Assembly: GCA_038078835.1 (NCBI GenBank)
Contig: JBBTQI010000003.1
Location: 2,196-66,195 of the forward strand
Reading direction: 5' to 3'
DNA length: 64,000 bases
Source of the DNA: Patescibacteria group bacterium
GTDB taxonomy: Bacteria; Patescibacteriota; UBA1384; XYA2-FULL-43-10; 1-14-0-10-43-13
This document shows positions 3,764-63,990 of the stretch, in pieces. Numbering within the stretch: position 1 is the stretch's first letter; each line of letters starts with the position of its first letter. The notes beneath the pieces were generated by a model. The model was not told where the DNA came from. It did not search any database and saw nothing but the letters and a program-made list of their open reading frames with translations. The translations under genes were made by a program, and so were the position numbers.

Positions 3764-5110
3764 TTAATTTTTGCCGGTCAATGGGGAACTGCTAATAGTG
3801 CCGCCGCCGAGGACAACCTCCCTGTCATAAAACACCGCCGCCTGGCCGGGAGTAATAGCCCGGATCGGGAGATCAAACCGAATTGTTAAATCAAAGTTTG
3901 GCGAGATGCTCGTATCGAGACTTGACGAGATATTGTTCGAAGCCTCAAGCTGAGAACCATAAACCATTGCCGGCTCTGCCGGACTTCGGTATCTTATCTT
4001 TACGCCGACCTTAATCGGAAGTTTAGGAACTTCGCCGATCCAGTGAACATTACTAACTTTGGCTTCATCTGAATACAAATCATCCTTATCGCCAACGTAA
4101 ATTTCGTTCTTCTTAACATCTTTACCAATAATATAATACGGCCCGCCGCCATCTTTGATATCAAAACCATGCCGCTGGCCAATAGTATAATACCAAGCCC
4201 CGTCATGCTCCCCTAACGTACGACCGTCGATGCGCTTTACCAAGCCTTTCTTCGGTTTAATGTAGTCTTTTAGAAATGACTTCATTTTGAGAGGCCCGAT
4301 AAAGCAGACTCCCTGGCTATCTTTCTTTTCAGCCGTTGGTAAATCAAATTTCTTAGCCAGTTCCCGAACCTCCGGCTTGGTATAATCGCCAATTGGAAAA
4401 AGAGTGCGTTCTAAGTGGCGTTGTTTAAGGGTGTAGAGAAAATATGATTGGTCCTTATTCTTATCAACCGCCTGGCAAAGTTCATAAATGAACGACGAAC
4501 CACCTAACGACGAACAACGAATATCATTATCCTCACCCCTGCCCTCTCCCGTCACACCAGGAGAGGGAGTTCCTTCTCCCTCTGGGAGAAGGTTAGGATG
4601 AGGGTTGTGAATCTGTTGTCCATTTGTCTGCTGTCCATTTATGACATTTATGCGAGCATAATGTCCCGTGGCCACATAATCAGCCCCTTCGGCCATGGCT
4701 TTATCAAAAAACAAGCCGAACTTGATCTCCTTATTGCACATAATATCCGGGTTGGGGGTAATTCCAGCCTTGTAAGCCTCCAGCATGTATGTTGCGACCT
4801 TTTCGCCGTACTCTTTGGTAAAGTCCCAGGTCAAGAGCGGAACGCCCAGCTTGGCCGCAACTCTCAAAGCGTCCCGACGCTCCTCTTTCCAAATGCAACC
4901 GGGGACCGCCGGGTTGGGGACTGTCGCCCATGGCGACTGTCCCCTTGACTTCGGACTTTTATCCCCCGTAGCCTCGGCGGAGGGGGACCAAAACTTCATA
5001 AACACGCCCACGACAAAATAGCCCTGTTCTTTCAGCAAGACCGCCGCAACAGAGCTGTCCACCCCGCCGCTCATCGCCACATAAACCTTTTTCTGCTTCT
5101 TCGTATCCAT
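3764..5110 (-). CDS. mnmA: tRNA-specific 2-thiouridylase MnmA, carrying in-frame repeat insertions
   Basis: PP-loop YVAMSGGVDSSVAAVLL. Start moved to the internal Met MDTKK (rc ATG at 5108-5110). About 449 aa versus a typical ~360 aa, because of in-frame palindromic repeat insertions at 4531-4608 and 4917-4945. Confidence 0.85.
   Translation of the reverse strand: MDTKKQKKVYVAMSGGVDSSVAAVLLKEQGYFVVGVFMKFWSPSAEATGDKSPKSRGQSPWATVPNPAVPGCIWKEERRDALRVAAKLGVPLLTWDFTKEYGEKVATYMLEAYKAGITPNPDIMCNKEIKFGLFFDKAMAEGADYVATGHYARINVINGQQTNGQQIHNPHPNLLPEGEGTPSPGVTGEGRGEDNDIRCSSLGGSSFIYELCQAVDKNKDQSYFLYTLKQRHLERTLFPIGDYTKPEVRELAKKFDLPTAEKKDSQGVCFIGPLKMKSFLKDYIKPKKGLVKRIDGRTLGEHDGAWYYTIGQRHGFDIKDGGGPYYIIGKDVKKNEIYVGDKDDLYSDEAKVSNVHWIGEVPKLPIKVGVKIRYRSPAEPAMVYGSQLEASNNISSSLDTSISPNFDLTIRFDLPIRAITPGQAAVFYDREVVLGGGTISSSPLTGKN
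4531..4608. repeat. REP-like palindromic element, family 1 (CCCTCACCCC..CCCTCTCCC / GGGAGAGGG), composite copy inside mnmA
   Basis: cctcacccctgccctctccc...ggagaggg...ccttctccctctgggagaagg. It is in frame in mnmA (encodes HPNPLPEGEGTPSPGVTGEGRG). Confidence 0.6.
4917..4945. repeat. Palindromic element, family 3 (GGGGACTGTCCCC pair), inside mnmA
   Basis: ggggactgtcgcccatggcgactgtcccc; the same element occurs in iscS and nifU. Confidence 0.6.
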
Positions 5111-5278
5111 ATCCGATGAATTATACCGGAAAACCTGCCATGAGTCCATGTAAGAAATAAAAAGGGCTACCCGTATGGTGGCGGACAGCCCTTTTGCGCG
5201 TCGACCGCCTTGCGGCGGTGAATCCAAGGATCAAATGGCAAGGAGCCAAAAGTTCAAAGGATTCAAGAAATCGAGGCT

Positions 5279-11087: not shown

Positions 11088-11540
11088 CTACCCTTCCAGC
11101 ATCTCGCTGATCTTGTCGCGGATCTCCTCCAATCGCTTCCTCTCGGCTAACAGTAATCGCTCATCAACCGAATAACCACGTAGTAACAAATTCTTCAGCG
11201 TCTTTGTTGCCCAGATCCGAAACAGAGTCGCTTTTTGGGAATTTACTCGATATCCGACAGACAAAATCGCGTCTAGATTGTAAAATTTAGTCTTATATTT
11301 CTTTCCGTCTTTGGCAGTACATTCCAAAATGGAATGAACTGATTTTTCTTCGAGTTCACTTGATTTAAAAACATTATGCAAGTGCTTTGCAATTGCTGGC
11401 TGATTTACGCCAAAAAGATCAGCCATTTGATTCTGGTTTAGCCAAAGAGTCTCATCCTTCAGGCGAGCCTCAATATAGACCTCACCCTTATAGACCTCAC
11501 CCTTCGGTGAAGTGTAAATGGCAATTTGATTCACTTCCAT
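11088..11540 (-). CDS. RhuM-family (virulence-associated DNA-binding) protein
   Basis: LWLNQNQMADLFGV...KYKTKFYNLDAILSVGYRVNSQKATLFRIWAT resembles the RhuM family consensus. Confidence 0.55.
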   Translation of the reverse strand: MEVNQIAIYTSPKGEVYKGEVYIEARLKDETLWLNQNQMADLFGVNQPAIAKHLHNVFKSSELEEKSVHSILECTAKDGKKYKTKFYNLDAILSVGYRVNSQKATLFRIWATKTLKNLLLRGYSVDERLLLAERKRLEEIRDKISEMLEG

Positions 11541-11549
11541 AGCACAATT

Positions 11550-13013
11550 TTAGCCCAACTCCCAGTTGGCGTCTACTTTAATCTTGCCCCAAGAAGAAAC
11601 ATTGTTTCGCAGAACGTGATAGTAGGCCGCCAGACCAATCATCGCCGCATTATCGCCGGTTAAAGCTATTGGCGGTACCAGAAAATCTACTTTCGACTTT
11701 TCACTTTCAACTTTCAACTTGCTTCGAAGGTGTTTGTTTGCAGCAACGCCGCCGGCCAAAACAACGGTTTTGGGGGTAAATTGTTCAACCGCTCTCATTG
11801 TTTTAGTTACCAGCACATCAACAACTGCATCCTCAAAGGCAGTGGCAATCTCCGCTTTATCGATATCATCAAGACCCTCACCCCTACCCTCTCCCAAAGG
11901 GCGAGGGAGTTTTAAGGAAATCCGACGCTTAACTTCCAGAAGAACAGCTGTCTTTAAACCGGAGAAAGAAAAATTAAAAGTGCCATTGTTAATAATCGGC
12001 CGAGGAAGAACTAATTTGCTTAAGGCTGGAGGCTTAAGGCCGACCTTCGACAAACTCAGGTCGCCCTGAGTGGAAATTGAATGGGCGGAGGCCACATCCT
12101 TCCCGCCTTCAGCCTTCGGCCTTGGGCCTTGGGCTGATTCGCCTTTAGGATCATTTCTAAATTGCTCCGCCAATTTAGAAATGATCGGTCCCCCGGGATA
12201 ACCAAGACTAAGCAACTTGGCCACCTTGTCAAAAGCCTCTCCCGCCGCGTCATCCAGGGTCTGGCCGAGAGTCTCATACTGATCGTGACCCTTCATCAGA
12301 ACAAGCGAAGTATGCCCGCCAGAAACCACTAAAGCCAAAATTGGAAATTTTGGCTCGTCCAAGGCCAAAGGCCCAAGGTCTAAGGTCTTTTCGTCTCGGC
12401 CTTCGACCTTCGACCTTCGACCTTCGACATTTACTCCGCTTAAAGCGGAGTAAATATGTCCTTCGATATGGTTGACGGGAATAATCGGCTTATCCAGCAC
12501 GTAAGCGATCGATTTGGCGGCGTTAAATCCAATCAAAAGAGACCCGATCAACCCCGGTCCCGCCGTTACCGCGATGTGGGTAATCTCATTTTTTAGATAA
12601 TCCTGACTTTCCTGAAAATTACTACCCTCACCCCAACCCTCTCCCTGAAAGGGAGAGGGAGTATTAAAGGTTCCATCGCCCCGTTTCACGGGGAGAGGGT
12701 TAGGGTGAGGGGTTATAATAGATCCGTTTCCTTTATTTTGCATTTTGCATTTTGCATTTTGATTTTTAGCCTGTAAGAGTGCTTGTACGATTACAGGCGT
12801 TATCGCTTCCATATGCGCCCGGCTGGCCACCTCCGGCACTACCCCGCCCGTCTTGGCATGGAGATCGATTTGAGAGCTCACCACATTCGACAAAATGACA
12901 GGCCGAAAGCCTGTCATCCCGGACTTGATCCGGGATCCATCTTTTCCTACCCCAATAACCGCCGCAGCGGTCTCATCACAAGACGACTCGATGGCAAGAA
13001 TTAGAGGGGACAT
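11550..13013 (-). CDS. tsaD: tRNA N6-adenosine threonylcarbamoyltransferase TsaD (Kae1/YgjD), strongly expanded by in-frame repeat insertions
   Basis: LILAIESSCDETAAAVI, HIEGHIYSA, and GGVAANKHLR. Start at the internal Met MSPLILAIESS (rc ATG at 13011-13013). About 487 aa versus a typical ~340 aa. It contains family-1 repeats (11875-11910, 12625-12712), family-2 repeats (12085-12135, 12352-12430) and a (cattttg)n microsatellite at 12738-12762. Confidence 0.85.
   Translation of the reverse strand: MSPLILAIESSCDETAAAVIGVGKDGSRIKSGMTGFRPVILSNVVSSQIDLHAKTGGVVPEVASRAHMEAITPVIVQALLQAKNQNAKCKMQNKGNGSIITPHPNPLPVKRGDGTFNTPSPFQGEGWGEGSNFQESQDYLKNEITHIAVTAGPGLIGSLLIGFNAAKSIAYVLDKPIIPVNHIEGHIYSALSGVNVEGRRSKVEGRDEKTLDLGPLALDEPKFPILALVVSGGHTSLVLMKGHDQYETLGQTLDDAAGEAFDKVAKLLSLGYPGGPIISKLAEQFRNDPKGESAQGPRPKAEGGKDVASAHSISTQGDLSLSKVGLKPPALSKLVLPRPIINNGTFNFSFSGLKTAVLLEVKRRISLKLPRPLGEGRGEGLDDIDKAEIATAFEDAVVDVLVTKTMRAVEQFTPKTVVLAGGVAANKHLRSKLKVESEKSKVDFLVPPIALTGDNAAMIGLAAYYHVLRNNVSSWGKIKVDANWELG
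12625..12712. repeat. REP-like palindromic element, family 1, composite nested palindrome inside tsaD
   Basis: ccctcaccccaaccctctccc-tgaaa-gggagaggg ... ggggagagggttagggtgaggg. The outer arms at 12625-12645 and 12692-12712 are reverse complements. Confidence 0.65.
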
Positions 13014-13032
13014 TAGAGGGGACGGTTCTCTT

Positions 13033-13683
13033 TTAGGCACAGTTTTTCGCTTTCTTTGATTTTCTGGCCACCTTTTCCTGTTCTCGGTATCTTTGATAAT
13101 TACTGCCCCAGATATTTTTACCATAAGTTTGCTCAATAATTTGGTCTACCACCAGTTTTTGATAGCTAATTTGTCTATCTTGTGCATCCTGTCCGATTGC
13201 CTCATAAAGAAAATCGGGGGTGATTAATAAATCTGTTTTACCTCGAACGTAATGGAGATAGCTTGAGTATTTGTAATCTTCCGGCCTTTCTACTAATCTC
13301 GCCCTGACCGGATTAAGTTCAATATACTTTCCGCACTGGATAAAGTAGGCGTCCTTACCGACCGCCTGACTTTTATAGCGATCTTGCCAAAAGTGGCCAA
13401 TCCAATCATAGGACTGCCGATAGTGTTGGAAATAGGCCAAATTTAACTTTTTCATAAAAGTCGAAAAGTCGAGAGCTTTCTTGGTTTGAATTAAAAAGTG
13501 AGTGTGGGTAGGCATCAAGCAATAATGATAAAGGTCAAAAGGATGTTCTGATTTATACCTGCCAATAAGTTCTAAAAAATACAAATAATCATCATCTGAC
13601 CTGAAAACCTTATTCCGGTTGTTGCCCCGGGTCATTATATGATAAAAACTCTGAGATAAAAGAAATCGTCGTGTTCTTGGCAT
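13033..13683 (-). CDS. REP-associated tyrosine transposase (RAYT, IS200/IS605 TnpA-like HUH enzyme)
   Basis: HUH motif CLMPTHTHFLIQ, plus WQDRYKS and YIELNPVRARLV with the catalytic Tyr region, 216 aa. A 12-bp direct repeat (cattagagggga x2) at 13001-13024 lies just downstream. Confidence 0.7.
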   Translation of the reverse strand: MPRTRRFLLSQSFYHIMTRGNNRNKVFRSDDDYLYFLELIGRYKSEHPFDLYHYCLMPTHTHFLIQTKKALDFSTFMKKLNLAYFQHYRQSYDWIGHFWQDRYKSQAVGKDAYFIQCGKYIELNPVRARLVERPEDYKYSSYLHYVRGKTDLLITPDFLYEAIGQDAQDRQISYQKLVVDQIIEQTYGKNIWGSNYQRYREQEKVARKSKKAKNCA

Positions 13684-13789
13684 AACGTAAGTTTACTAGA
13701 ATTCAGTAAAAAGCGAAATATCGAGATAAAAAGAGAACCGTCCCCTTAAGCTCTTAAGCTTATTAACAAAAATCCCTATAAAAATCAAA

Positions 13790-14774: not shown

Positions 14775-15719
14775 TTGAAGTTAATGTCCACCTCTCTTTT
14801 CCAAACCCCCGAGTGGGGGGATTTTAAGTGCCAAACCGGCTGGAGCAAGCAGCATCGCCTTGACGGTATTTTGGTGCTGGAGAAAAAATTACCCCTTGGA
14901 CGGACGATGCTATATTCACCGATGATCAATGAGGCTCAAGGCCGGAGGCTCAAGGCCGGAGGCTTTTTGGAACAGATCAAAAACATCGCTCAAAAGCGCA
15001 ATGCCATATTTTACCGGGTGGAATTCGACACCCCGCTCCCAACCTTCGACCTTAAGCCTTCGACCTTCGGCGCCCGTCGGGCTTTCGAGGAGATGCAGCC
15101 GGAGCATACGCTGATTCTCGATATCACCCAGAGCGAGGAAGAGATTCTGGCTCAGATGAAACCAAAGGGGCGGTATAACATTAAAGTGGCCGAACGAAGC
15201 GGAATCGAGATAACGGAGTCAACTGATCCCAAGGGGCCGGAACTCGACAGCTTTTACACACTCTACGAGTCTATGGCCAAGCGGCAAAGAATTTCCTATC
15301 GAGATAAAAAATACTTCGAGGCTCTACTTGAAATCCTGGGCAAAAAGGATTATGCTCGACTGTACGATGCCTCTGTTAATATTGATGGCAAAACTACTAC
15401 CCTGGCATCAGCCATTGTCGGGAACTTTGATCGGCGGGTGACCTATCTCTTCGGCGGCTCAAGCAATGAACACCGTAATTTGATGGCGCCCTATCTCCTG
15501 CATTGGCAGATAATCAAAGATGCTAGAGCGCAGGGCTGCACTGAATACGACTTGTTCGGTATTGCCCCCAATGATGACCCCAAACATCCCTGGGCCGGCG
15601 TAACGCGGTTCAAAAAACAGTTCGGCGGCCGCGAGGTCCACCTGGCCGGAAACTGGGATCTGGTCTTTAGACCGGTTGAATATCAATCATTCAAGATAGT
15701 CGAGAAAATCCGAAGATAG
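14775..15719 (+). CDS. FemAB-family peptidoglycan interpeptide-bridge aminoacyltransferase
   Basis: FemAB-like architecture: LILDITQSEEEILAQMKPKGRYNIKVAER, then ...YLFGGSSNEHRNLMAPYLLHWQIIKDARAQGCTEYDLFGI. Carries two family-2 repeat insertions (14936-14966, 15041-15072). Confidence 0.8.
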   Translation: MKLMSTSLFQTPEWGDFKCQTGWSKQHRLDGILVLEKKLPLGRTMLYSPMINEAQGRRLKAGGFLEQIKNIAQKRNAIFYRVEFDTPLPTFDLKPSTFGARRAFEEMQPEHTLILDITQSEEEILAQMKPKGRYNIKVAERSGIEITESTDPKGPELDSFYTLYESMAKRQRISYRDKKYFEALLEILGKKDYARLYDASVNIDGKTTTLASAIVGNFDRRVTYLFGGSSNEHRNLMAPYLLHWQIIKDARAQGCTEYDLFGIAPNDDPKHPWAGVTRFKKQFGGREVHLAGNWDLVFRPVEYQSFKIVEKIRR

Positions 15720-17350: not shown

Positions 17351-17363
17351 CAACGAACATCCC

Positions 17364-18491
17364 TCACTTTAATCCTCTCCCTTTGAAGGGGAGAGGGGAG
17401 GGGGAGGGTTTGGCTTGTGAGCGTTTGCCGTGAAAAGCTTGGTGAACTTCGCGCAGATGCTGATCGGTAACATGGGTATAGACTTGAGTGGTGGTGATGG
17501 AAGAGTGGCCCAAAAGCGACTGGACGCTCCGAACATCGGCGCCGTTAATTAAGAGATCGGTGGCAAAGGAGTGGCGCAAGGTGTGCGGCGATACCTTTTT
17601 AGTGAGACCGGCTTTCCTGGCCGCTTTCTCGACAATACGCTGGACACTTCGAACCGCGAGACGCCCGCCCCGGGGGGAAGAGAAAAGGGGCTCATTATCA
17701 CTTAAGGCCGGAGACCTAAGGCCGGAGACCAAATTGCTATTACCTTCAGCCTTCAGCCTTAGACCTTGGGCTGATTTGCCTTCAGCCTTAGACCTTCGGC
17801 CTTGAGCTGATTCGCCTTGGGCCTTGGGCATGGGGCCTTCGGCATAATTCTTCAACCAATATTTTGCGCTCTCTGAAAGAAAAACGACCCGAAGCTTCTT
17901 GCCCTTACCCAACACGGCAATCTCACCTCGTTCGAGATTTATCTGGTCCCGGTCAAGGGCGACCAACTCCGAGACTCGCACCCCCGTTGAAAAAAGAACC
18001 TCCAGAATCGTCCGATCGCGCAAACCGGAAGTTTTAGCAACATCGACAGACTCTAAAACGCTTCTAAGCTCCTCCGTTTCCAGAAAACTGATCTCGCGAT
18101 CCCCCGTTTTAGCGATAACAACCTTCTCCGGCGGTAAAGTCATAATCCCCCGCCAAGAGAGATAGCGCAAAAAAGCCCTAAGGGCTAGGGCATGATAATT
18201 TTGTGTCGTCTTCTTAAGCTCTTGCCCCTTCTTGTCGCCCAATCGATTGATGTAAAGCCGGTAGTGCCGCACCGTCTCTTGGGTAATCATTTCTGGCATA
18301 AGGCCGGAGGCCACATCCTTTTCGCCTTCGACCTTAGGCCTTTGGCCTTCGGCAACATAATCCTTCAGCCACGTTAAAAAACGATTAAGGTAGCGGTCAT
18401 ATCCGGCAATCGTTAAAGTTGACTGGCCCTTGTCCAGCTCGCAATACTCCAAAAACTCGCGTTTTAATTGAAATAAATCATTCATTATCAT
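17364..18491 (-). CDS. xerD: Tyrosine recombinase XerC/XerD family, carrying in-frame repeat insertions
   Basis: HTLRHSFATDLLINGADVRSVQSLLGHSSITTTQVYTHV (R..HxxR..Y catalytic box). Two family-2 repeat insertions (17697-17835, 18298-18360). The C-terminal tail and stop codon lie inside a family-1 palindrome (17361-17410). Confidence 0.85.
   Translation of the reverse strand: MIMNDLFQLKREFLEYCELDKGQSTLTIAGYDRYLNRFLTWLKDYVAEGQRPKVEGEKDVASGLMPEMITQETVRHYRLYINRLGDKKGQELKKTTQNYHALALRAFLRYLSWRGIMTLPPEKVVIAKTGDREISFLETEELRSVLESVDVAKTSGLRDRTILEVLFSTGVRVSELVALDRDQINLERGEIAVLGKGKKLRVVFLSESAKYWLKNYAEGPMPKAQGESAQGRRSKAEGKSAQGLRLKAEGNSNLVSGLRSPALSDNEPLFSSPRGGRLAVRSVQRIVEKAARKAGLTKKVSPHTLRHSFATDLLINGADVRSVQSLLGHSSITTTQVYTHVTDQHLREVHQAFHGKRSQAKPSPSPLPFKGRGLK
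17697..17835. repeat. GC-rich palindromic element, family 2 (AGGCCGAAGGC / GCCTTCGGCCT theme), inside xerD
   Basis: aaggccggagacctaaggccggagacc...ccttcagccttcagccttagaccttgg...ccttcggccttgagctgattcgccttgggccttgggc. The translated segment KAQGESAQGRRSKAEGKSAQGLRLKAEGNSNLVSGLRSPALSDN recurs in uppP and tsaD. Confidence 0.6.
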
Positions 18492-18608
18492 AAATGGATG
18501 ACTAATTGGTCTAAATAACAAATGACGAATATTCATATCCCCTCTATCTCCCTCCCGCATCGAGTACGGGACAGGCTCTACCTTAGGGGGAGAACCATTG
18601 GTTGTTCG

Positions 18609-19261: not shown

Positions 19262-20170
19262 ATGATAACTATGCAAGAATTCTTTCAGTCTCTGGTAATC
19301 GGCGCCATCCAGGGCATCACCGAATTTCTGCCGATCTCCTCGTCGGGGCACCTGGTCTTGGTCCCTTATCTTTTTGGTTGGGACTATCAGGGTCTCTCAT
19401 TTGATGTCGCCCTTCATTTTGGCACCGCCCTTGCTGTTATTGCCTACTTCCGGCGGGACTGGATAAAGATCATCGCTAAAGGCCTAAGGCTGAAGGCTGA
19501 AGGCAATAGCAATTTGGCCTCCGGCCTTAGGCCTCCGGCCTTAGGCTTTTCCGCTTCCAGCCCTAGGCCTCCGGCCTTAGGCAAAAATTTGCTGTGGCAA
19601 ATTTTAATCGCTTCCATTCCGGCGGCGATTGCCGGCATCTTGATCAACGACTATGTTGAATCAACTCTCCACTCTCCTCTCTTGCTCGCCGCTAACCTGA
19701 TTATCTTTGGCTGGCTTCTCTGGTATGCCGACAAACGAGCTGCCTTCGGCCTTTGGCCTTCGGCCTTCGCCCATTCGATTTCCACTCAGGGCGATCTGAG
19801 TCTATCGAAGATCGGCCTTCGGCACGCCTTGTTTATTGGTCTGGCTCAATCTCTTGCCCTGGTCCCCGGCGTCTCCCGCTCCGGCATCACCATCACCGCC
19901 GCTCGCAGCCTCGGCCTGAATCGGGAAGCGGCAACCCGCTTCTCCTTTCTCCTCGGTACTCCGGCGATTGTCGGCGCCTTTCTCTATAAATTCAAGGATA
20001 TCGATATTGCCCTAATTAACCTTCCCTTTATTGTTGCCACACTGGCGGCAATGGTCTTTGGTTTTCTTGCGATCAAGTATTTGCTACAATATTTAAGAAA
20101 GAGCGATTTCTCCGTTTTTTTGTGGTATCGAGTCGCACTAGCCATAATCGTGCTCTTCGGAGGGAAATGA
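19262..20170 (+). CDS. uppP: Undecaprenyl-diphosphatase UppP/BacA, carrying in-frame repeat insertions
   Basis: N-terminus LVIGAIQGITEFLPISSSGHL, and a C-terminal GVSRSGITITAA motif. Family-2 repeat insertions at 19478-19582 and 19742-19772 encode LRLKAEGNSNLASGLRPPALG and FAHSISTQGDLSLSKIGL. Both peptides also occur in xerD and tsaD. Confidence 0.85.
   Translation: MITMQEFFQSLVIGAIQGITEFLPISSSGHLVLVPYLFGWDYQGLSFDVALHFGTALAVIAYFRRDWIKIIAKGLRLKAEGNSNLASGLRPPALGFSASSPRPPALGKNLLWQILIASIPAAIAGILINDYVESTLHSPLLLAANLIIFGWLLWYADKRAAFGLWPSAFAHSISTQGDLSLSKIGLRHALFIGLAQSLALVPGVSRSGITITAARSLGLNREAATRFSFLLGTPAIVGAFLYKFKDIDIALINLPFIVATLAAMVFGFLAIKYLLQYLRKSDFSVFLWYRVALAIIVLFGGK
19478..19582. repeat. GC-rich palindromic element, family 2, inside uppP
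   Basis: aggcctaaggctgaaggctgaaggc...ggcctccggccttaggcctccggccttaggc. Confidence 0.6.
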
Positions 20171-27986: not shown

Positions 27987-28036
27987 CCCTCACCCTAAAC
28001 CCTCTCCCTTTCGGGGAGAGGGAATAAGAGGGAGTG
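27987..28036. repeat. REP-like palindromic element, family 1, intergenic copy
   Basis: ccctcaccctaaaccctctccctttcggggagagggaataagagggagtg. Confidence 0.6.
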
Positions 28037-30130: not shown

Positions 30131-31189
30131 ATGTCCCAATTTTCAACTCAACAATCAATCGACATTGCCGGGATTAAGGAGGGTGTCGTCATCCTCAAGA
30201 ATGGCGGCTACCGCCTGATCTTTTCGGTGGCGGCAATTAACTTTGCCCTAAAGAGCGAGCAGGAACAGAACTCGATTATTTTCCAGTACCAAAGCTTTTT
30301 AAACTCCCTTCACTTCCCCATTCAGATCGTGATGAGATCCAAGCGTTTAGACCTCGACCCGTATTTGCAAAAAGTCTCCAAGCTGGCCGGAGATCAGCAA
30401 AACGAGTTATTGCGAATTCAAACTGAGGATTACGTCGACTTTGTCGGCAAACTCATCAATATCGCCAACATTATGAAAAAGACCTTCTACGCCGTCATCC
30501 CCTACCAGCCCCTCTCTCTCCAAAACACGGGCGCTCTGGGCAAACTGTTCCGGCGAGAAAAAACGGTGACAGAGCTTAAGATCTCTGAAACGGAGTTCAA
30601 TCATAATATCCAGGAGCTTAAACAGCGCGCCGGCGTTGTCGCCAGCGGCCTGGGCTCGATGGGCCTGCGCTGTGTTCAGCTCTCAACCGAGGAGGTCATT
30701 GAGCTCTTTTATCAAGTCTACAACCCCGAAGAAGCCGGAACGGAGAGAGTCAGCGATGCCGAGAGCCTGACCTCGCCCGTTGTCATTCACAAAAGCGAAG
30801 CGCCCGAAGAAGCCGGAGGTCAAAGGCCGGAAGGTGAAGGCGATAATACGGCCGAGAGCCTAAGGCCGAAGGCCGAAGGGGGTCAAGCTGAAGGCGAAAG
30901 GCCGGAGGCTGAAAGCCAAAGAGAAGAGGTAATTGACAATTCGGCCTCGGTACTGGCGCAACAAAAAGAACAAGCTATGCTCCACCGCCAGGAGATGATG
31001 AAGGAGGGAGAGCGCAATATAGCCCAAGGCCAAAGGCCGGAGGCTGAAGACGACAACACCCCCAATCCGCCACCGGCAACGCCCGAACCAATAACTCAAA
31101 CGCCGAATCAAACCACTACTCAAACAAATCAGCCCGACAACTCGAACCCCGAGGAACAGGATGAAACCCAACAGCACAAGCCCCAATAA
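30131..31189 (+). CDS. VirB4/TraC-family ATPase, N-terminal fragment (split gene) with a low-complexity repeat-derived tail
   Basis: DIAGIKEGVVILKNGGYRLIFSVAAINFALKSEQEQNSIIFQYQSFLNSLHFPIQIVMRS matches the VirB4 N-terminus of Gram-positive conjugation systems. The C-terminal ~130 aa (EAPEEAGGQRPEGEGDNTAESLRPKAEGGQAEGERPEAE...) are encoded by family-2 repeats at 30812-30918 and 31021-31048. Confidence 0.55.
   Translation: MSQFSTQQSIDIAGIKEGVVILKNGGYRLIFSVAAINFALKSEQEQNSIIFQYQSFLNSLHFPIQIVMRSKRLDLDPYLQKVSKLAGDQQNELLRIQTEDYVDFVGKLINIANIMKKTFYAVIPYQPLSLQNTGALGKLFRREKTVTELKISETEFNHNIQELKQRAGVVASGLGSMGLRCVQLSTEEVIELFYQVYNPEEAGTERVSDAESLTSPVVIHKSEAPEEAGGQRPEGEGDNTAESLRPKAEGGQAEGERPEAESQREEVIDNSASVLAQQKEQAMLHRQEMMKEGERNIAQGQRPEAEDDNTPNPPPATPEPITQTPNQTTTQTNQPDNSNPEEQDETQQHKPQ
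30812..30918. repeat. GC-rich palindromic element, family 2, inside the virB4 N-terminal fragment
   Basis: ggaggtcaaaggccggaaggtgaaggc...gcctaaggccgaaggccgaaggg...gaaaggccggaggctgaaagcc. Confidence 0.55.
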
Positions 31190-31592
31190 AGGCTCCCTCC
31201 AATCCCCTCTCCTCCGAGAGGAGAGGGTGAGGGTGAGGAGAAAATTAAGAGTTAACTCAACTCCAGCTGAACAGATAATCTGGCACAAAATAAGATCAAG
31301 ACAATTAAACAACCTGAAGTTTCGGCGGCAACATCACTTTGGAAAATATATCGCCGATTTCTATTGCCCAGAGAAGAAATTGGTAATCGAGATCGATGGT
31401 GATGTTCATGATTTAGAATGTCAGAGAGAGCACGATAAAAAAAGAGGCCATTATTTAACGAGCTTAGGTTTGCGTGTCTTACACATTACCAATGATGAAG
31501 TGAGAAATAATCTTACAGGAGTACTAGAAAGCATCTTGCTGCAACCCCATCCCTCACCCCAACCCTCTCCCTTAAAAAGGGGGAGGGAGTAA
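31161..31592 (+). CDS. DUF559-family endonuclease-domain protein (Vsr/restriction-endonuclease-like fold) inserted between the two virB4 halves
   Basis: RKLRVNSTPAEQIIWHKIRSRQLNNLKFRRQHHFGKYIADFYCPEKKLVIEIDGDVHD...LGLRVLHITNDEV matches the DUF559 consensus. It is flanked by family-1 palindromes at 31194-31228 and 31551-31592. A likely alternative GTG start lies near 31231. Confidence 0.65.
   Translation: MKPNSTSPNKGSLQSPLLREERVRVRRKLRVNSTPAEQIIWHKIRSRQLNNLKFRRQHHFGKYIADFYCPEKKLVIEIDGDVHDLECQREHDKKRGHYLTSLGLRVLHITNDEVRNNLTGVLESILLQPHPSPQPSPLKRGRE
31194..31228. repeat. REP-like palindromic element, family 1, left flank of the DUF559 cassette
   Basis: tcccctctcctccgagaggagagggtgagggtgagg. Confidence 0.6.
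31551..31592. repeat. REP-like palindromic element, family 1, right flank of the DUF559 cassette
   Basis: tccctcaccccaaccctctcccttaaaaagggggagggag; encodes the DUF559 C-terminal tail HPSPQPSPLKRGRE. Confidence 0.6.
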
Positions 31593-34749: not shown

Positions 34750-36018
34750 ATGAAAAATGATATTTATCAATATCTGAACGCGCGGATATATTTGGCGCTC
34801 TTTGTGATGGTCTCGGCTCTCTTTGGCCTCTACTGGTTTGCGACTCACTCCTACCTCACCATCAAGGTCACGCCGCCGGACGCTATGGTCACGATCAATA
34901 ACGCGCCGGTCTCGCTCTCCGCCGCCGGCAAAATAAAACGGGCTCTCGCGCCGGGCGCCTACTCGCTTCGGATTGAGGCTGACGGCTACGTCGGCTATAT
35001 CGAGGAGGTTGCCCTCAAACGAACTCAGCGCAAAACCGTCTCGGCCAGCCTCACGGAGGCGCCAAAGGTCCAGACTCTGGCGGAATCAGCGAAATTCCTC
35101 TCCGCCGGGCCGGACTTTAACACCATCCACTATCTGGGCGATGATGGCAGAACGCTCTACCGCGCCAAGACAACACTGGAAAACGGCGAGGTCAAACTCA
35201 AAGAGCACCTCCCGATAACCGAGCCGCGGTTCTCCGGCCTTGAGGAGATTGTCTGGTCGCCCGGCAAGGAGCTGGCTCTCCTGCGCAAGAGCGAGGGCAT
35301 CTATCTCTTCGATTTTAAAAAATACGATTTTATCAATCAAACCGAGACATTGTGGGCCAAGAGCGCCGGCAGTCTTGCCTGGTCGCCGGACAACTCCAAA
35401 ATCGCCTATTATTACGCCGACGACAAGGAGAAATCATTAATCTTTACTAATATTGCCAACACCGAACCGGTACGGGTGGCTAATCTGGCCGAGATGAATA
35501 TCGTCAATCCGATTCTGCGCTGGTCGCCGGACTCCGAATGGCTCCTTGTCATACCTCGTAATACTTTTTCATACGATTTAAGCAAAGTTTATGCCTTTAA
35601 CGCCTACAGTCGCTCCTTTATCGAACTGACGGAAACGGGCAGCCAGCTTGACGCCAGCTTCTCGCCGGACGGCAACAGAATCATCTACGGCACGTATTCG
35701 GAGCTCTCCAGCAATCCCGTCACTTCTCTAATATCGATTATGGATAAAGACGGCGCAAACAAACGCTCGCTTAATTTACGCGCCGATATCAGCCGGATGG
35801 CCTGGAAAAAAGACAGTAAAACCTTAGTCGCGGCGACTTATAATCCCTCAAGTCACAAAGAGTCGCTCTTTGGCTTTGACACCGAGAAGAAGCAGAAGAT
35901 TGATTTCTCCGTTAATGCTCTTGATTCGGGTTACATCCGCACTCTGGCCATTTCTGACGACGAAAAGATCATCATTTTTGAGTCGGGGAACGGGATATAC
36001 GGCATCGCAATAGAGTAA
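34750..36018 (+). CDS. Membrane-anchored PEGA-domain plus TolB-like beta-propeller protein
   Basis: TM helix, a PEGA-like LTIKVTPPDAMVTINNAPV...GAYSLRIEADGYV, then repeated WSPD / FSPDG motifs (WSPDNSKIAYY, RWSPDSEWLLV, FSPDGNRIIYG). Confidence 0.5.
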   Translation: MKNDIYQYLNARIYLALFVMVSALFGLYWFATHSYLTIKVTPPDAMVTINNAPVSLSAAGKIKRALAPGAYSLRIEADGYVGYIEEVALKRTQRKTVSASLTEAPKVQTLAESAKFLSAGPDFNTIHYLGDDGRTLYRAKTTLENGEVKLKEHLPITEPRFSGLEEIVWSPGKELALLRKSEGIYLFDFKKYDFINQTETLWAKSAGSLAWSPDNSKIAYYYADDKEKSLIFTNIANTEPVRVANLAEMNIVNPILRWSPDSEWLLVIPRNTFSYDLSKVYAFNAYSRSFIELTETGSQLDASFSPDGNRIIYGTYSELSSNPVTSLISIMDKDGANKRSLNLRADISRMAWKKDSKTLVAATYNPSSHKESLFGFDTEKKQKIDFSVNALDSGYIRTLAISDDEKIIIFESGNGIYGIAIE

Positions 36019-36245
36019 ATCTCAAACAACAAGCACCAAATATCAAATAATTTCCAAATCACAAACCTCAAATAACAAATAAATTCCAGATTGCAATTAC
36101 CAGCTACAAAAGCGTTTGAAAATTAGAGATTGGGACTTGGAACTTATCTAAGATTTGTTATTTGGGATTTAAATTTTACTTGTGGTTTGGTGCTTGGTAT
36201 TTGAGGTTTCTCCGCTTTGGCGGAGAGGAGGGGTTTTGGCAACCG
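36019..36245. repeat. ~220 bp AT-rich MITE-like inverted-repeat element, copy 1
   Basis: ...caagcaccaaatatcaaataatttccaaatcacaaacctcaa...ttacttgtggtttggtgcttggtatttgaggtttctccgctttggcggagaggagg. The arms are imperfect reverse complements. It ends in a small hairpin plus GGAGAGGAGG. Confidence 0.5.
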
Positions 36246-40600: not shown

Positions 40601-43600
40601 TCAAGCCGGCACAATTCTTCAAGAAGCTGGCGATATCCAAAGTCGAATCCGAACTCAACCTCCCCAAAAATTCCGTCACCTATTACGTCCAAAACTGGGA
40701 GATCAAAGGGGTCGAGGGTAATAATATCGACGCTTTCTATCAGGCGATCGGCCAGGCCAAAATTGAGGAGAAGCTGGGTCTGCCGGAATTTTATTTCCAG
40801 GGACCGATCTATAAAGATGTTAAGGATTACAGCCAAATTGCCTGCAATGCCATCCAAGACGGCGACAATTGGCAGCTGGCGGTGGATGAACGCTCCGATA
40901 AGCTGTACGGCGAACTTCAAAATTTCTATCGAGAATCGAACAAAACAATCAAAGTTCCAGGAAGCGGCGACAATATCAACATCGACAACGAGAATCAGGT
41001 TTGCGATCTCCTCCTTCGAGCCAAGAGCGGCACGGCCGTCCGCCACCGGGAAGCCAAGCAGGTCTGGCGCGAGATTGAACGGGCCGCTATCTCGATCTTT
41101 CGGCGAGAGCAGAATGAAAAGAACAAAAATACCGACAGCACTATGACCGATGTCGCCAGGAATGTCGATTATCAGAAACTCGCCGACGGCATCAGGGGCG
41201 GCAACAATGATGTTATGCTCCGCTTCGGTCTGGCCGGCAGCCTGGAAGCCGCTTTTAATCAACTTTATTGGTCAGCTAATCCGGGCAGCCGGCAGCGCGC
41301 CGAGAAAATTGATCGTGATCTGGGCATTACCGCCGCCGGCAAAAGTCGATCCACCAACACCCAGGCTCTCTTTACCGGCGAAACTCTTCTCTGGCGCGAC
41401 GGCCAGGATATGCTGACGGAGACGGAGAAAAATTCTCTTGCCGAGAGCGGACTCACCCTCACGCAAACCCTCTCCGGCACAGAGGAATATGCGCGTAAAA
41501 TCGCTCTGTCGGAGGATGTTTTAAACCGTTATCTTCAGGTCCTAAACAACGAGATCGACCTAAACGGTTTTAAGAACTACAAACAGCATCCCGTCTCTTA
41601 TAATTCGACCAATCGCTACCAAAAGGACAGAAGAACCAATGACGACGCCGAGAAGAGCTGCAAGATAACCTACACCAAAAAGGATGGCTTTGAGGTGGCG
41701 GAAAACTCGATTCAGGATGACGCCTATGTCTATGTTGACGCCCAAGGCAAGCCCTACTCCTTCCGCAATAAGGAGGCGGCGGCGGCCTTTATTAAGGGAC
41801 AGGGATTTGAGGAGCAATATTATATCTCGCTCTTAGCTCAATACCTCTATGATCTCGGCCAATATATTCAATCCGAATATGGTCCCTTTAGCCAGGAGTA
41901 CCGCGAGCGTTTCTCGTCGACTGCCCGCGTTCAGGACGCCCTGGAACGCTTCTTGCAGCAGGCGGACATTGACCTCCTGCCCTTTGCGGAAATTATCGAT
42001 AAAGCGGAGGCAAAAAATCATCAATTCACGCCGGAAAACCAGATCCTCTTCGGCAACACTTCTCTCTCTACTCTGCGCAAACTCTTCGGCCAACCTCTCC
42101 TGGCCGACAAACCCCTTCAGCGCTACCGCCATATTGTCGGCTCGGCCGAAGCTAAAAGGATATTGACCGCCACACTCCTGCGCAACGTTGGCATTACAAT
42201 CAATCCCGAAGATTTCGGACCGGAGGATTTCCTGGCCATTCTCTCCGGCGACTACCGCCCCCTCACCCGTCTGGGAGCAACCTTAATCGACAAAAGCATG
42301 GATCTTCCCCAGGGCTCAACCCGGGCGCTCTTTGCCATTCAGTCGCTGGACGATATCACCTGCGTTTTGAGTGATATCGGCGCTCAACGCCTGGGCAAGC
42401 TGGTCGGCCTGAAACGCCTGCCCCTAAACGGCGAGATCGGCGCGCACTATCTCTCCCAGCTCTATCACAATATGGGCCAGGCCAAGATCGAGGAAACTCT
42501 GGGTCTCCCCTACGGCAGTTTCCGCGGCCAGGCTCTCTCAACTTATCCGGGCAGTCCGGGCCTCATCGAGAACATTGGGCACCTTAACTTTGCCCTGGCT
42601 TTTGAAATCCCCCTTGAGGGCGTAATTGAAGGTTCAAATGAGACTATCGCCAGCGCCGCCCTCCAGGTTATCGGCGAGATAATGGGCCAGGCCGCGGTTG
42701 AGAAGTATCGGAAAGCCTCAACAACCAATCTCTTAAAGCTCATTCGCGACAATCTGGCTTACACTACCAGCCGCAAGATCAATTCATTAGAATCTCTCGA
42801 TCGGACAATATATTACCGGGTTTCCGAACTAGTCAAAGCCGATGACAAAAACGGCAAGTTCTGGCAGGGCGATCTTAAAAAAGAAACGGAGGACTTCTTT
42901 GCCCGCCTGCGCTATCTCGACGGCGTCTTTGAGCTTGATTCCCTCTCGGCCGACAGTCGAACCTTCGCCCTCTTTAACGGCAAAATTAAGCCCGACGCTT
43001 ACGCCGAGCGGGTGGCGGCGATGATGGCCCGGCGCTTAACCGCAACCTCATTGGCTAACGCCTTCGGTATTGACGAGGAGGACGCTAAGGACGCTAAGGC
43101 CGCCTATGAGATTATCCGCAACTGGAACAATATCTTTCACTGCTATGATAAAGACTTCAATTCATACTCCGGTCCCATGGGGCTTGACGATGCCTGCGCC
43201 GGCTGGAACCAGAACTGGGGCAAGCTCTATGACGGCTTAAGTAAAATTGTCGATGTCGATCTGGATGACCGGGCCGGCTTGTCGGACGGCAGTATGCGGG
43301 CGATGATCAACAATCCCGAGATCGCCCCCCAGATTCTTCTGGCCAACGGCGCCGCCGATCTGGATGAGAAGTGGGAGCTTGACACACCCTCTGCCGCCGA
43401 TATAACCGGCGCCGTCATTGGCGCTCTCGGCGGGAGTGGTATTGCCGACATTAAAGACGGCACCTTTGCCACCGCCTATACTTCAGCCCTGAATTGGCAG
43501 GCTTATAAAAACTTTACTCCGGCCGAGCGGGCCAACCTGAGCAATGTCCGGAGTTTTTGCGCCAAAAACTACGCCGATCCCGACTTAAATTTGCTGACCG

Positions 43601-54564: not shown

Positions 54565-54790
54565 ACCAAAAAATCCCAAATTACAAGCACCAAATAACAA
54601 ATAATTTCCAAATCACAAACCTCAAGTAATAAATAAATTCCAGATTTCAATTACTAACTACAAAAGCGTTGAAATTGAAATTAGAGATTGGAACTTGGAG
54701 CTTATCTGAGATTTGTTGTTTGATATTTGTAATTTACTTGTGGTTTGGTGCTTGTTGTTTGAATTTTCTCCGCCAAGGGCGGAGAGGAGG
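54565..54790. repeat. ~220 bp AT-rich MITE-like inverted-repeat element, copy 2
   Basis: Close to colinear with copy 1 (...acaagcaccaaataacaaataatttccaaatcacaaacctcaag...tacttgtggtttggtgcttgttgtttgaattttctccgccaagggcggagaggaggg). Its terminal GGAGAGGAGG acts as the SD for the ATG at 54795. Confidence 0.5.
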
Positions 54791-55619: not shown

Positions 55620-55629
55620 TGCTTACATA

Positions 55630-55673
55630 ATCCACCTGGAAGGTGAATGCGCCCAAACACCTTCCAGGTGGAT
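55630..55673. terminator. Conserved hairpin CCACCTGGAAGGTG-N12-CACCTTCCAGGTGG, copy 1 (terminator-like)
   Basis: atccacctggaaggtg aatgcgcccaaa caccttccaggtggat, directly after the stop of the 54795-55619 gene. Confidence 0.5.
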
Positions 55674-55738
55674 TACTCGCTCGAACTATAACAAAAACCG
55701 CTTCGATCGCGAGCGGTTTTTGCTGTTATCACTAAGAT

Positions 55739-56538: not shown

Positions 56539-56586
56539 AACCCACCTGGAAGGTGTTTGGCCACACTCACCTTCCAGGTGGGTTGG
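56539..56586. terminator. Conserved hairpin CCACCTGGAAGGTG-N12-CACCTTCCAGGTGG, copy 2
   Basis: aacccacctggaaggtg tttggccacact caccttccaggtgggtt, between pilin-like genes 2 and 3 (downstream of the stop of gene 3 on the minus strand). Confidence 0.5.
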
Positions 56587-60518: not shown

Positions 60519-60562
60519 GCCCACCTGGAAGGTGAATGTGCTCAAACACCTTCCAGGTGGGC
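60519..60562. terminator. Conserved hairpin CCACCTGGAAGGTG-N12-CACCTTCCAGGTGG, copy 3
   Basis: gcccacctggaaggtg aatgtgctcaaa caccttccaggtgggc, downstream of the stop (60669) of the secreted paralogue gene. Confidence 0.5.
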
Positions 60563-63814: not shown

Positions 63815-63990
63815 GTTCAAAATCCCAAACAACAAATATCAAATAACAAATAATTTCCAATTTTCGAATTTCAAAAACTTTGGACTTTGGTAGTTGAAAT
63901 TTATTTGGGATTTGGTTTTTGGATTTTGTAATTTCCGAAACTTTGTTTTACAAAGTTTCGGCTGTTTCTCTTATAAACTTCGCAAACTCG
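63815..63990. repeat. Diverged third copy of the ~220 bp MITE-like element (upstream of the SBP gene start)
   Basis: aaatcccaaacaacaaatatcaaataacaaataatttccaa ... ttggatttggtttttggattttgtaatttccgaaactttgttttacaaagtttcgg. Shares the 5' arm words and the inverted structure with copies 1 and 2. Confidence 0.35.

Follow-up and report, generated by a model that had tools for sequence, protein, structure and literature searches.

BoxC/TMECO-type triplex repeats lie in frame in housekeeping genes of a Patescibacterium and border a DUF559 nuclease gene

A 64,000-nt stretch of contig JBBTQI010000003.1 (GenBank assembly GCA_038078835.1, positions 2,196 to 66,195 of the forward strand; hereafter the window), which derives from a Patescibacteria (Candidate Phyla Radiation, CPR) population in Hainich groundwater, carries a short structured repeat that interrupts the housekeeping genes tsaD and mnmA, forms the end of xerD and brackets a small gene for a DUF559 nuclease. 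There are ten units of this repeat, here called triplex-motif (TM) units, and six of them lie in frame within open reading frames (ORFs), namely those of tsaD, mnmA, xerD and DUF559. Five contigs encode an identical TsaD protein; the two loci presented derive from assemblies of two different Hainich samples, which makes an assembly artefact unlikely. The units and the genes that hold them are as follows.

3764-5149, minus strand: mnmA, host gene of the TM pair at 4530-4604
4530-4567 (plus) and 4572-4604 (minus): TM pair in mnmA, hairpin-to-hairpin, found by the unit pattern
11550-13013, minus strand: tsaD, host gene, 487 residues (Pfam TsaD, TIGR03723)
11875-11907, plus strand: single TM unit in tsaD, exact TMECO match
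12625-12659 (plus) and 12673-12711 (minus): TM pair in tsaD, hairpin-to-hairpin, the plus-strand unit being an exact TMECO match
17364-18560, minus strand: xerD, host gene, whose 3' end is the TM unit at 17361-17408
17361-17397 (plus) and 17373-17408 (minus): two TM tails flanking a single hairpin that they share, at the 3' end of xerD, found by the unit pattern
27987-28022, plus strand: single intergenic TM unit, found by the unit pattern
31161-31592, plus strand: DUF559 (PF04480) ORF for a Vsr/restriction-endonuclease-like nuclease of 143 residues, Pfam 109.6 bits
31205-31239, minus strand: TM unit forming the left inverted end of the DUF559 cassette, hairpin outside and G-rich tail toward the gene, found by the unit pattern
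31551-31589, plus strand: TM unit forming the DUF559 cassette's right inverted end, with the C-rich tail toward the gene and the hairpin outside, found by the unit pattern

Each TM unit is 33-39 bp long (75-87 bp as pairs). A pyrimidine tail of 9 nt is followed by a loop of 3 nt, a pyrimidine arm of 9 nt, a second loop and a purine arm of 9 nt. An initial annotation of the same DNA, made from the sequence alone, had reported a nested palindrome in at least seven copies. The recurrence is borne out, and the anatomy is redefined by the third, mirror-repeat segment rather than by nested palindromes. A scan for CCCTCACCCCNACCCTCTCCC with up to 3 mismatches returned 8 matches in the window compared with 0.00 expected from 100 dinucleotide-preserving shuffles. 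A pattern covering a complete unit (tail, spacer of 2-4 nt, pyrimidine arm, loop of 1-10 nt and purine arm, with a few mismatches) found the 10 units at 7 places, against one hit in all from 30 shuffles of the window, which leaves practically none to chance. The left copy beside DUF559, previously placed at 31194-31228, is corrected to 31205-31239. The hairpin of the intergenic unit folds at -10.8 kcal/mol (z -3.9). A match at 41456 lacks a partner with which to form a hairpin and probably arose by chance, and isolated 9-mers at 469 and 57132 were likewise taken as chance.

The window repeats are almost certainly members of the BoxC / PIT / TMECO intrastrand-triplex family. This motif was named BoxC, then PIT (potential intrastrand triplex), before it was published as TMECO with the form 5'-CCCTCNCCC-N3-6-GGGNGAGGG-N3-GGGNGAGGG-3' and a tolerance of one mismatch (PMC4666352). 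Two window units fit the family pattern CCCTCNCCC-N3-CCCTCNCCC-N3-6-GGGNGAGGG exactly; a relaxed form of the pattern, with a few mismatches allowed, covers all 10. Moreover, positions 12691-12711 show full identity to the E. coli HPG1 21-mer GGGAGAGGGTTAGGGTGAGGG, which together with its CCG variant has been described as a G-quadruplex/hairpin switch restricted to intergenic DNA (Kaplan 2016, PMC5100583). The window and the E. coli family BoxC/TMECO/HPG therefore share the pattern, the identical 21-mer and an occurrence both as single units and as palindromic pairs. Because the BoxC/TMECO/HPG1 pattern and the 21-mer both match, the earlier view that the sequence family was undescribed is wrong: it had been reported as BoxC / PIT / TMECO (PMC4666352) and as HPG1/HPG2 (PMC5100583).

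In published surveys, TMECO was counted 3610 times in 262 proteobacterial genomes (Holder 2015, PMC4666352), with 23 copies in E. coli K-12 (MG1655), all of them intergenic (PMC4666352). The same work tied the motif to local genome instability, reported no transposase, integrase or other mobility gene near it, and demonstrated triplex formation in vitro by circular dichroism (CD) and nuclear magnetic resonance (NMR) (PMC4666352). In Enterobacter sp. 638, 100 hairpins of the form CCCTCTCCC..GGGAGAGGG lie at gene 3' ends (PMC2869309). Of 5426 E. coli genomes, 4318 contain a match to an enterobacterial BoxC query, and the repeat is unannotated there. Salmonella is reported to lack the motif. The window differs in several respects: the E. 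coli family is reported to be strictly intergenic and without an associated protein or a known function, whereas in this Patescibacterium 6 of the 10 units lie within ORFs and a DUF559 gene is bracketed. An intergenic location is a reported habit of the family and not part of its structural definition, and the window units are still assigned to BoxC / TMECO. Their density is also much greater, with 10 units in 64 kb compared with 23 in the whole MG1655 chromosome.

A scan for the 20-base core, restricted to one genome per species, returned at least 120 genome loci with unrelated flanks. The phyla listed include Pseudomonadota, Myxococcota, Desulfobacterota, Planctomycetota, Verrucomicrobiota, Chloroflexota, Cyanobacteria/Melainabacteria, Acidobacteriota, Bacteroidota, Omnitrophota and Parcubacteria, among others. 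With this spread, the element, earlier described as REP-like, is not a lineage-specific repetitive extragenic palindromic (REP) sequence. Where TM units neighbour one another in the at least 120 loci, nearly all pairs are inverted: 37 are tail-to-tail (with gaps of 12-98 nt), 18 are hairpin-to-hairpin and 2 are direct.

Within tsaD, the repeats add residues to an otherwise recognisable protein. The window protein scores 265.7 bits with Pfam TsaD, the match being broken into 4 stretches, and 340.9 bits with NCBIfam TIGR03723. Alignment with E. coli TsaD (PDB 4ydu) places five insertions at residues 24-37, 84-141, 191-214, 285-332 and about 361-375. The TM pair at 12625-12711 encodes residues ~101-130, and the single unit at 11875-11907 encodes residues ~369-380 (PRPLGEGRGEG). 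The peptides TPHPNPLPVKRGDG..TPSPFQGEGWGEG and LPRPLGEGRGEG are found in the TsaD translation; TPSPFQGEGWGEGSNFQESQDYLK (TsaD) and PLGEGRGEGLDDIDK are examples of predicted junction-spanning peptides. From the unit coordinates, TM units supply ~42 of the ~144 extra residues. Different repeats, namely heptamer arrays and an SGMTG-type palindrome, account for the three remaining insertions and for some of the second. The attribution of the long TsaD to the palindromic family therefore holds for the in-frame additions themselves, which are real, and fails for most of the added length.

The insertions appear compatible with the fold. An AlphaFold2 model of TsaD from a 111-sequence alignment has a pTM of 0.84 and a core pLDDT above 90, with low-confidence coil at ~95-130, 191-220, 291-332 and 369-378. 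The invariant catalytic residues, including H182, H186 and D454, are retained. With ordinary folding programs, which contain no triplex model, the tsaD pair folds at -31 kcal/mol as DNA (z -7.1) and at -59.9 kcal/mol as mRNA (z -8.2), an unusually strong structure for the inside of an essential ORF.

The comparison set comprised the 120 closest TsaD orthologues, all from Patescibacteria and 348-546 residues long. As the initial annotation had predicted, the TsaD copies occupy positions that are blank in the E. coli structure (4ydu), as do the MnmA copies with respect to PDB 2hma; peptides derived from TM units occur in only 2 of the 120 orthologues, the window protein and P0005, so the extra segments are not shared by the remaining 118. 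No close relative with an empty tsaD site was found in the protein collection, where the nearest orthologue is 52-54% identical. P0005 is encoded on a syntenic contig, L123, with the order uppP-PAP2-xerD-mur ligase-femAB-tsaD-...-leuS-nifU-iscS. Over its 21.5 kb, this contig has just one TM unit, which matches the window unit at 11875-11907 in its tsaD site and its orientation. The third codon positions of the two tsaD genes are 39% identical, whereas 22 of the 23 nt on the G-rich strand of the TM unit agree. Both copies have the same hairpin arm, CCCTCGCCC, and loops of 3 and 8 nt shift the frame so that the peptides differ (LPRPL in one and FPSPVLT in the other). Conservation thus lies in the nucleic-acid motif and not in the peptide. 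The shared unit may represent an ancient constrained insertion, gene conversion or repeated insertion.

Other repeats also occur in TsaD. A third palindromic element encodes DGSRIKSGMTGFR at ~12903-12944 (residues 24-37), and the same site is occupied in orthologues P0002 and P0010. Further Patescibacteria TsaD loops carry IPAFAGMT, VIPAKAGIQ, CHPEQSEGS..LRFAQNDK or HSREGGN. Unrelated repeat families thus appear to colonise shared protein loops across the phylum, and literature searches returned nothing on such repeat-encoded peptides (PAFAGMT, LRFAQND and others) or on in-frame repeats in Patescibacteria. (TTTTGCA)3-4 heptamers adjoin the tsaD TM units (12741-12770), and runs of TTGACAT / GTAACNG adjoin TM units in a Parcubacteria locus (L086 ~719-800), which hints at nested insertion or a common target preference. 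Directly downstream of tsaD and before leuS lies a 150-residue ORF with a Virulence_RhuM domain (precomputed Pfam; 11088-11540), a region in which L123 differs.

The copies in mnmA and xerD follow the same pattern. The mnmA pair encodes residues ~182-207, inside an insertion at residues 168-223 that maps between residues 135 and 145 of S. pneumoniae MnmA (PDB 2hma). In xerD, the repeat supplies the last 18 residues (KPSPSPLPFKGRGLK*) and the stop: the TGA at 17364-17366 lies within the TM tail, as had been suggested, and the catalytic VYTHV motif is intact upstream of this repeat tail. The prediction that gene-internal copies keep the frame and encode particular peptides was upheld by translation, which reproduces those peptides in TsaD, XerD and DUF559. 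The coding units of the window lie at surface loops or C-termini in stop-free frames. The segments that they encode are rich in Pro, Ser, Gly and Glu and are modelled by AlphaFold2 as low-confidence coil. In the consensus unit, five of the six reading frames are open. Its forward frames read PSPQPSP, PHPNPLP or LTPTLS, two reverse frames read LPLPFRERVGVR or PSP..GEGWGEG, and the third reverse frame has a TGA derived from GGGTGAGGG, which is the one that ends xerD. We are therefore highly confident that the TM copies in tsaD, mnmA and xerD are genuine in-frame additions to functional genes, and neither ancestral segments nor marks of pseudogenes.

Open frames across the TM motif were also sought in the at least 120 core loci and checked with Pfam. 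Confirmed in-frame copies were found in Mfd (in a Bordetella metagenome-assembled genome), in the ATPase domain of HsdR, in IspG (Omnitrophota), in UDP-galactopyranose mutase (Muribaculaceae) and in CtaA, and also in the linker of a double ABC ATPase. In-frame copies are, to judge from these genomes, not peculiar to the window genome. As far as the searchable literature shows, in-frame TM copies within real genes are new, as are the presence and the density of the family in Patescibacteria.

This habit recalls the Rickettsia palindromic elements (RPEs), to which the initial annotation had likened the repeats. RPEs have been described as in-frame palindromic elements of ~150 bp (Ogata et al. 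2000, 2002, via PMC10969869). Both they and the window TM units are palindromic repeats that lie in frame in unrelated housekeeping genes at positions compatible with the fold. The comparison is fair as to the effect on proteins because the insertions are in frame and tolerated by the fold, with catalytic motifs intact. It does not extend to size, anatomy or host: TM units measure 33-39 bp (75-87 bp as pairs) as opposed to ~150 bp and occur in many phyla, a distinction based on size and anatomy and not on sequence alignment. RPEs are not known outside Rickettsia and are ordinary hairpins with no known mirror third segment or linked enzyme gene.

The second feature of the repeats is their association with DUF559. 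In the window, an intact cassette with the structure TM-DUF559-TM spans 31205-31589, and both termini of the DUF559 ORF are encoded by TM units, with the peptide HPSPQPSPLKRGRE reproduced. The protein has D40, E51, D53 and H57, the invariant residues of 7 aligned sequences. The right cassette end begins with 22 nt, CCCTCACCCCAACCCTCTCCCT, that the tsaD unit at 12625 shares without a mismatch. A DUF559 profile matched 3hrl in the PDB (1e-34); its match to 3r3p (a 'mobile intron protein') was weak, with E 0.0014, and PADLOC gave weak matches to restriction-type and homing-nuclease models (3.7e-4 for the homing model). Among the window and loci selected for TM, TM units abut DUF559 in 6 of 8 hits. 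Similarly, MetRS (Variovorax) and PriA (Gastranaerophilales) frames contain a complete DUF559 with a TM unit on either side.

A less selective view came from 80 metagenomic loci fetched by protein pattern alone, regardless of TM, these being the loci most similar to the window copy. A canonical TM unit lies within 200 nt of DUF559 in 35 of the 80 loci, and 17 have an inverted pair. A minus-strand unit is present within 200 nt upstream in 25 and a plus-strand unit within 200 nt downstream in 24; 19 of 27 such downstream units start 4-26 nt past the end of the DUF559 domain. TM density is 1.67 per kb near DUF559 compared with 0.09 per kb farther off. Loci that the strict pattern missed are flanked by variants, such as AATCCCCC-TTGA-TCCCCCTTT-loop-AAAGGGGGA and TCCTCCCC-AG-CCCTCCTTT-loop-AAAGGAGGG. 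A generalised detector, which requires a pyrimidine-arm hairpin and a mirrored tail with the tail toward the gene, found the motif on at least one flank of 54 of the 80 loci and on both flanks of 28, as against 14 of 2272 control windows at least 400 nt away (0.6%). The physical association between TM units and DUF559 is, in our judgement, very likely to be real.

The canonical TM arm is mirror-symmetric in itself. Asymmetric arms beside DUF559 have a tail that matches as a mirror only in 48 cases (22 distinct cores) and as a direct repeat only in 1. Such tails are just what an intrastrand triplex of the Y*R:Y or R*R:Y kind would need, and they serve as covariation evidence for this fold. Cassettes measure 385-565 bp, and their ends extend as CT|CCCTCTCCC...GGGAGAGGG|AG. 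Tail-to-tail TM pairs look like this cassette arrangement minus the ORF.

Longer ORFs enclose about 10 of the 80 cassettes. Hosts of DUF559 confirmed by Pfam are HsdM, HsdR (with a split ATPase domain), an HrpA-like helicase (between the two RecA domains), HsdS, a class II aminoacyl-tRNA synthetase (aaRS) and FdhD. Canonical TM borders accompany the in-frame cassettes of MetRS, the HrpA-like helicase, the class II aaRS and FdhD. The in-frame cassette of PriA has reversed TM polarity, and in HsdR and HsdM the in-frame DUF559 comes with other TM arrangements. As far as can be gathered from the searchable literature, the TM-DUF559 cassette is new, including its in-frame occurrence in aaRS and helicase genes; the same literature contained nothing linking DUF559 or YcjD to TM repeats. 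This DUF559 subfamily is rare in mobile carriers: it turned up in 3 of 50,697 records for phages and in 40 of 72,556 for plasmids.

Reverse-polarity cassettes (L052 2407-2839; L138; L186) have their tails outward and hairpins inward, which is the layout of the tsaD and mnmA pairs. In E. coli, the flgG-flgH spacer holds a BoxC pair, a single REP and a BIME-like REP pair in three strains (L206:1440-1720, L207, L208).

On balance, and by a small degree, we favour the reading in which TM-DUF559-TM is a selfish cassette that leaves gene-less remnants and filtered in-gene copies. That DUF559 is itself the mobilising enzyme of the TM repeats is inferred more tentatively. In this proposal, TM-DUF559-TM would be a selfish mobile cassette, and single or paired TM units would be its non-autonomous, gene-less remnants, moved in trans by DUF559. 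On single-stranded or supercoiled DNA, the nuclease would recognise the triplex-type end in its folded form, and its cuts would let TM units spread. Copies within genes would survive only if in frame, stop-free and on a tolerant loop. The BoxC repeats could then be, as a possibility we would not yet call probable, the inverted ends of an unrecognised selfish element whose sole gene, DUF559, recognises an intrastrand triplex and which, like its gene-less remnants, settles in essential genes unspliced. If this is true, the element could do so without splicing because its ends are open in five of the six frames and encode flexible Pro/Ser/Gly/Glu linkers.

Several observations weigh against the mobile-cassette reading, and some of them would suit a different explanation, in which TM units are passive repeats that readily form structures and have no enzyme of their own. 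Replication slippage, illegitimate recombination, gene conversion or horizontal transfer would spread and homogenise them. DUF559 would then be a bystander or a host nuclease for triplex or hairpin obstacles, its gene either attracting the repeats or being regulated by them. TMECO has been linked to local instability, with no mobility genes nearby, and dimethyl sulphate (DMS) footprinting in E. coli did not detect the triplex in vivo (PMC4666352). No TM movement was observed, and the ends of 19 cassettes showed no target-site duplication. The spacer between fabI and the DUF559 gene ycjD in E. coli K-12 contains a BoxC, which counts toward the DUF559 link, yet it is a single copy ~170 nt from ycjD with a non-canonical polarity. 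BoxC was first noted beside envM, another name for fabI. A comparison of filled and empty fabI-ycjD sites gave no clean element boundaries, the O157:H7 difference being an unrelated TetR/RND island. In the flgG-flgH spacer of E. coli, strains exchange BoxC, REP and BIME by replacement of the whole spacer, and no filled/empty pair was found. Reverse-polarity cassettes occur in 7-8 of the 80 loci in addition to PriA. Copies of a variant motif are present near their own cognate cassettes at 0.053 per kb compared with 0.023 per kb, in short loci of at most 4.3 kb. The frequencies at DUF559 loci are valid for one subfamily only, because the 80 loci are those most similar to the window copy, and no biochemical characterisation of DUF559 was found in the literature. 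Lastly, translation of the TM segments is predicted from their open frames. Against passive repeats, TM units stand inverted on the flanks of DUF559, at short and fixed distances, in many phyla, and their sequence varies with the DUF559 lineage while the mirror design is retained. A 21-mer identical in E. coli and Patescibacteria is also more than such repeats should preserve. Whole TM-DUF559-TM units also sit in frame in the unrelated genes for MetRS, PriA, the helicase and the aaRS, from which it follows that the three cassette parts arrived together. We regard passive repeats as unlikely, and still to be reckoned with because no movement, empty site or footprint has been seen and the E. coli ycjD arrangement is non-canonical.

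The remaining alternatives are far less probable. The extra segments could be ancestral or convergent low-complexity loops of Patescibacteria, whose TsaD proteins indeed vary (348-546 residues) at those same loops and of which one relative has a unit at the matching tsaD site. This is scarcely credible, given that the nucleotide unit is also found in non-coding DNA, in unrelated window genes and in many phyla, that 118 of 120 TsaD orthologues lack the TM peptides and that the arm is conserved across different frames. Removal of the segments in the manner of introns or inteins, or decay of the host genes to pseudogenes, is highly improbable too, despite the very stable mRNA hairpin of the tsaD pair and the distant relationship of DUF559 to a homing-endonuclease domain. 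All intragenic units are in frame and stop-free, which splicing would not need; the host genes retain their invariant catalytic residues, and TM units are too short for inteins. Rfam at gathering thresholds found only a tRNA in the whole window, and in E-value mode tsaD gave sub-threshold generic hairpin or miRNA models only, with no intron or ribozyme. The last candidate enzyme is a transposase of the RAYT type encoded beside tsaD, which would mobilise the TM units as REP/REPIN elements.

13033-13683, minus strand: RAYT-type Y1 transposase gene, NCBIfam REP_Tyr_transpos 81.1 bits (cut-off 80)
13017-13053 and 13710-13746: 37-nt inverted repeats bracketing the RAYT gene

Its position only 20 nt from tsaD and its inverted repeats favour such a role. 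However, the 37-nt repeats (core AAGAGAACCGTCCCCT) that flank it are unrelated to TM and have no other exact copy in the window, no RAYT homologue was found among the at least 120 TM loci or, on the strand searched, among the 80 DUF559 loci, and L123 has the tsaD TM unit without a RAYT. The RAYT was accordingly ruled out as the partner enzyme by its own unrelated repeats and the lack of co-occurrence, and mobilisation of TM units by it is very unlikely. The gene is probably a separate, recent insertion, since it is absent from the syntenic L123.

In spite of this, the REP/REPIN-RAYT system shares with TM units the use of short structured repeats as singles and inverted pairs, a position flanking the gene of a candidate enzyme acting in trans and the lack of target-site duplication. 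The putative TM enzyme is a PD-(D/E)XK DUF559 nuclease where that of REPs is a Y1 HUH transposase, and TM units have a triplex-type mirror tail. REPs are largely extragenic and species-specific and have GTAG or CGTC heads, which are absent from TM units. MITEs, or miniature inverted-repeat transposable elements, are likewise short, non-coding and multi-copy, with inverted ends that match a gene-bearing element, here the DUF559 cassette. TM units are much shorter, lack target-site duplication (19 cassettes) and have a putative parent without a recognised transposase. A third likeness is to the Vsr-like (EDxHD) homing endonucleases (I-Bth0305I, 3r3p), which like DUF559 are small nucleases of a related fold in conserved genes (aaRS, helicases and restriction-modification subunits). 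In contrast to inteins and to homing genes carried by introns, the DUF559 cassette stays in the protein by way of linkers encoded by the repeats, and the homology to 3r3p is weak (E 0.0014). The cassette appears not to be removed, because no surrounding intron is present (none in Rfam; intein motifs were not searched).

BoxC / PIT / TMECO is among the most conserved short repeats of bacteria, and its origin, spread and function have been open since the 1990s. A 2026 review considered the relevance of bacterial triplex DNA to be largely unresolved (PMC13463272). The polarity-specific link to DUF559 names a candidate enzyme, for which E. coli YcjD offers a tractable homologue, and the mirror covariation over many variants constitutes comparative evidence of selection on the triplex design. 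If the mobile-cassette reading is correct, it describes an intein-free way of living inside proteins that occurs in many phyla and is especially dense in Patescibacteria. TM copies in TsaD, MnmA, XerD, IspG and Mfd, together with cassettes in aaRS and helicases, would point to a general route from selfish DNA to new loops and domains in essential proteins. This would help to account for the inflated, loop-rich proteins of Patescibacteria. It also bears on how genes are called and orthologues aligned in metagenome-assembled genomes, and on their protein-length statistics.

The window also contains repeats of other kinds. A family with a 7-nt period (GGCCTTC / AAGGCCG variants) lies in frame in tsaD, femAB, xerD, uppP and another ORF and encodes peptides such as EGRRSKVEGR and AQGPRPKAEGG. 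Its arrays are located as follows.

12019-12135: 7-nt-period repeats
12356-12429: 7-nt-period repeats
14935-15071: 7-nt-period repeats
17701-17843: 7-nt-period repeats
18295-18354: 7-nt-period repeats
19476-19583: 7-nt-period repeats
19739-19819: 7-nt-period repeats
30811-31059: 7-nt-period repeats

Two heptamer arms, at 17703-17767 and 19479-19543, are 94% complementary. AT-rich composite palindromes of ~200 nt with heptamer-like units (e.g. AAATCACAAACCTCAAATAACAAAT) are found at 36016-36215, 54570-54773 and 63819-63934 and are 80-91% alike. Finally, a palindrome of 40-46 nt with a perfect stem, CCACCTGGAAGGTG...CACCTTCCAGGTGG, is present in three copies, at 55629-55674, 56539-56584 and 60520-60561.

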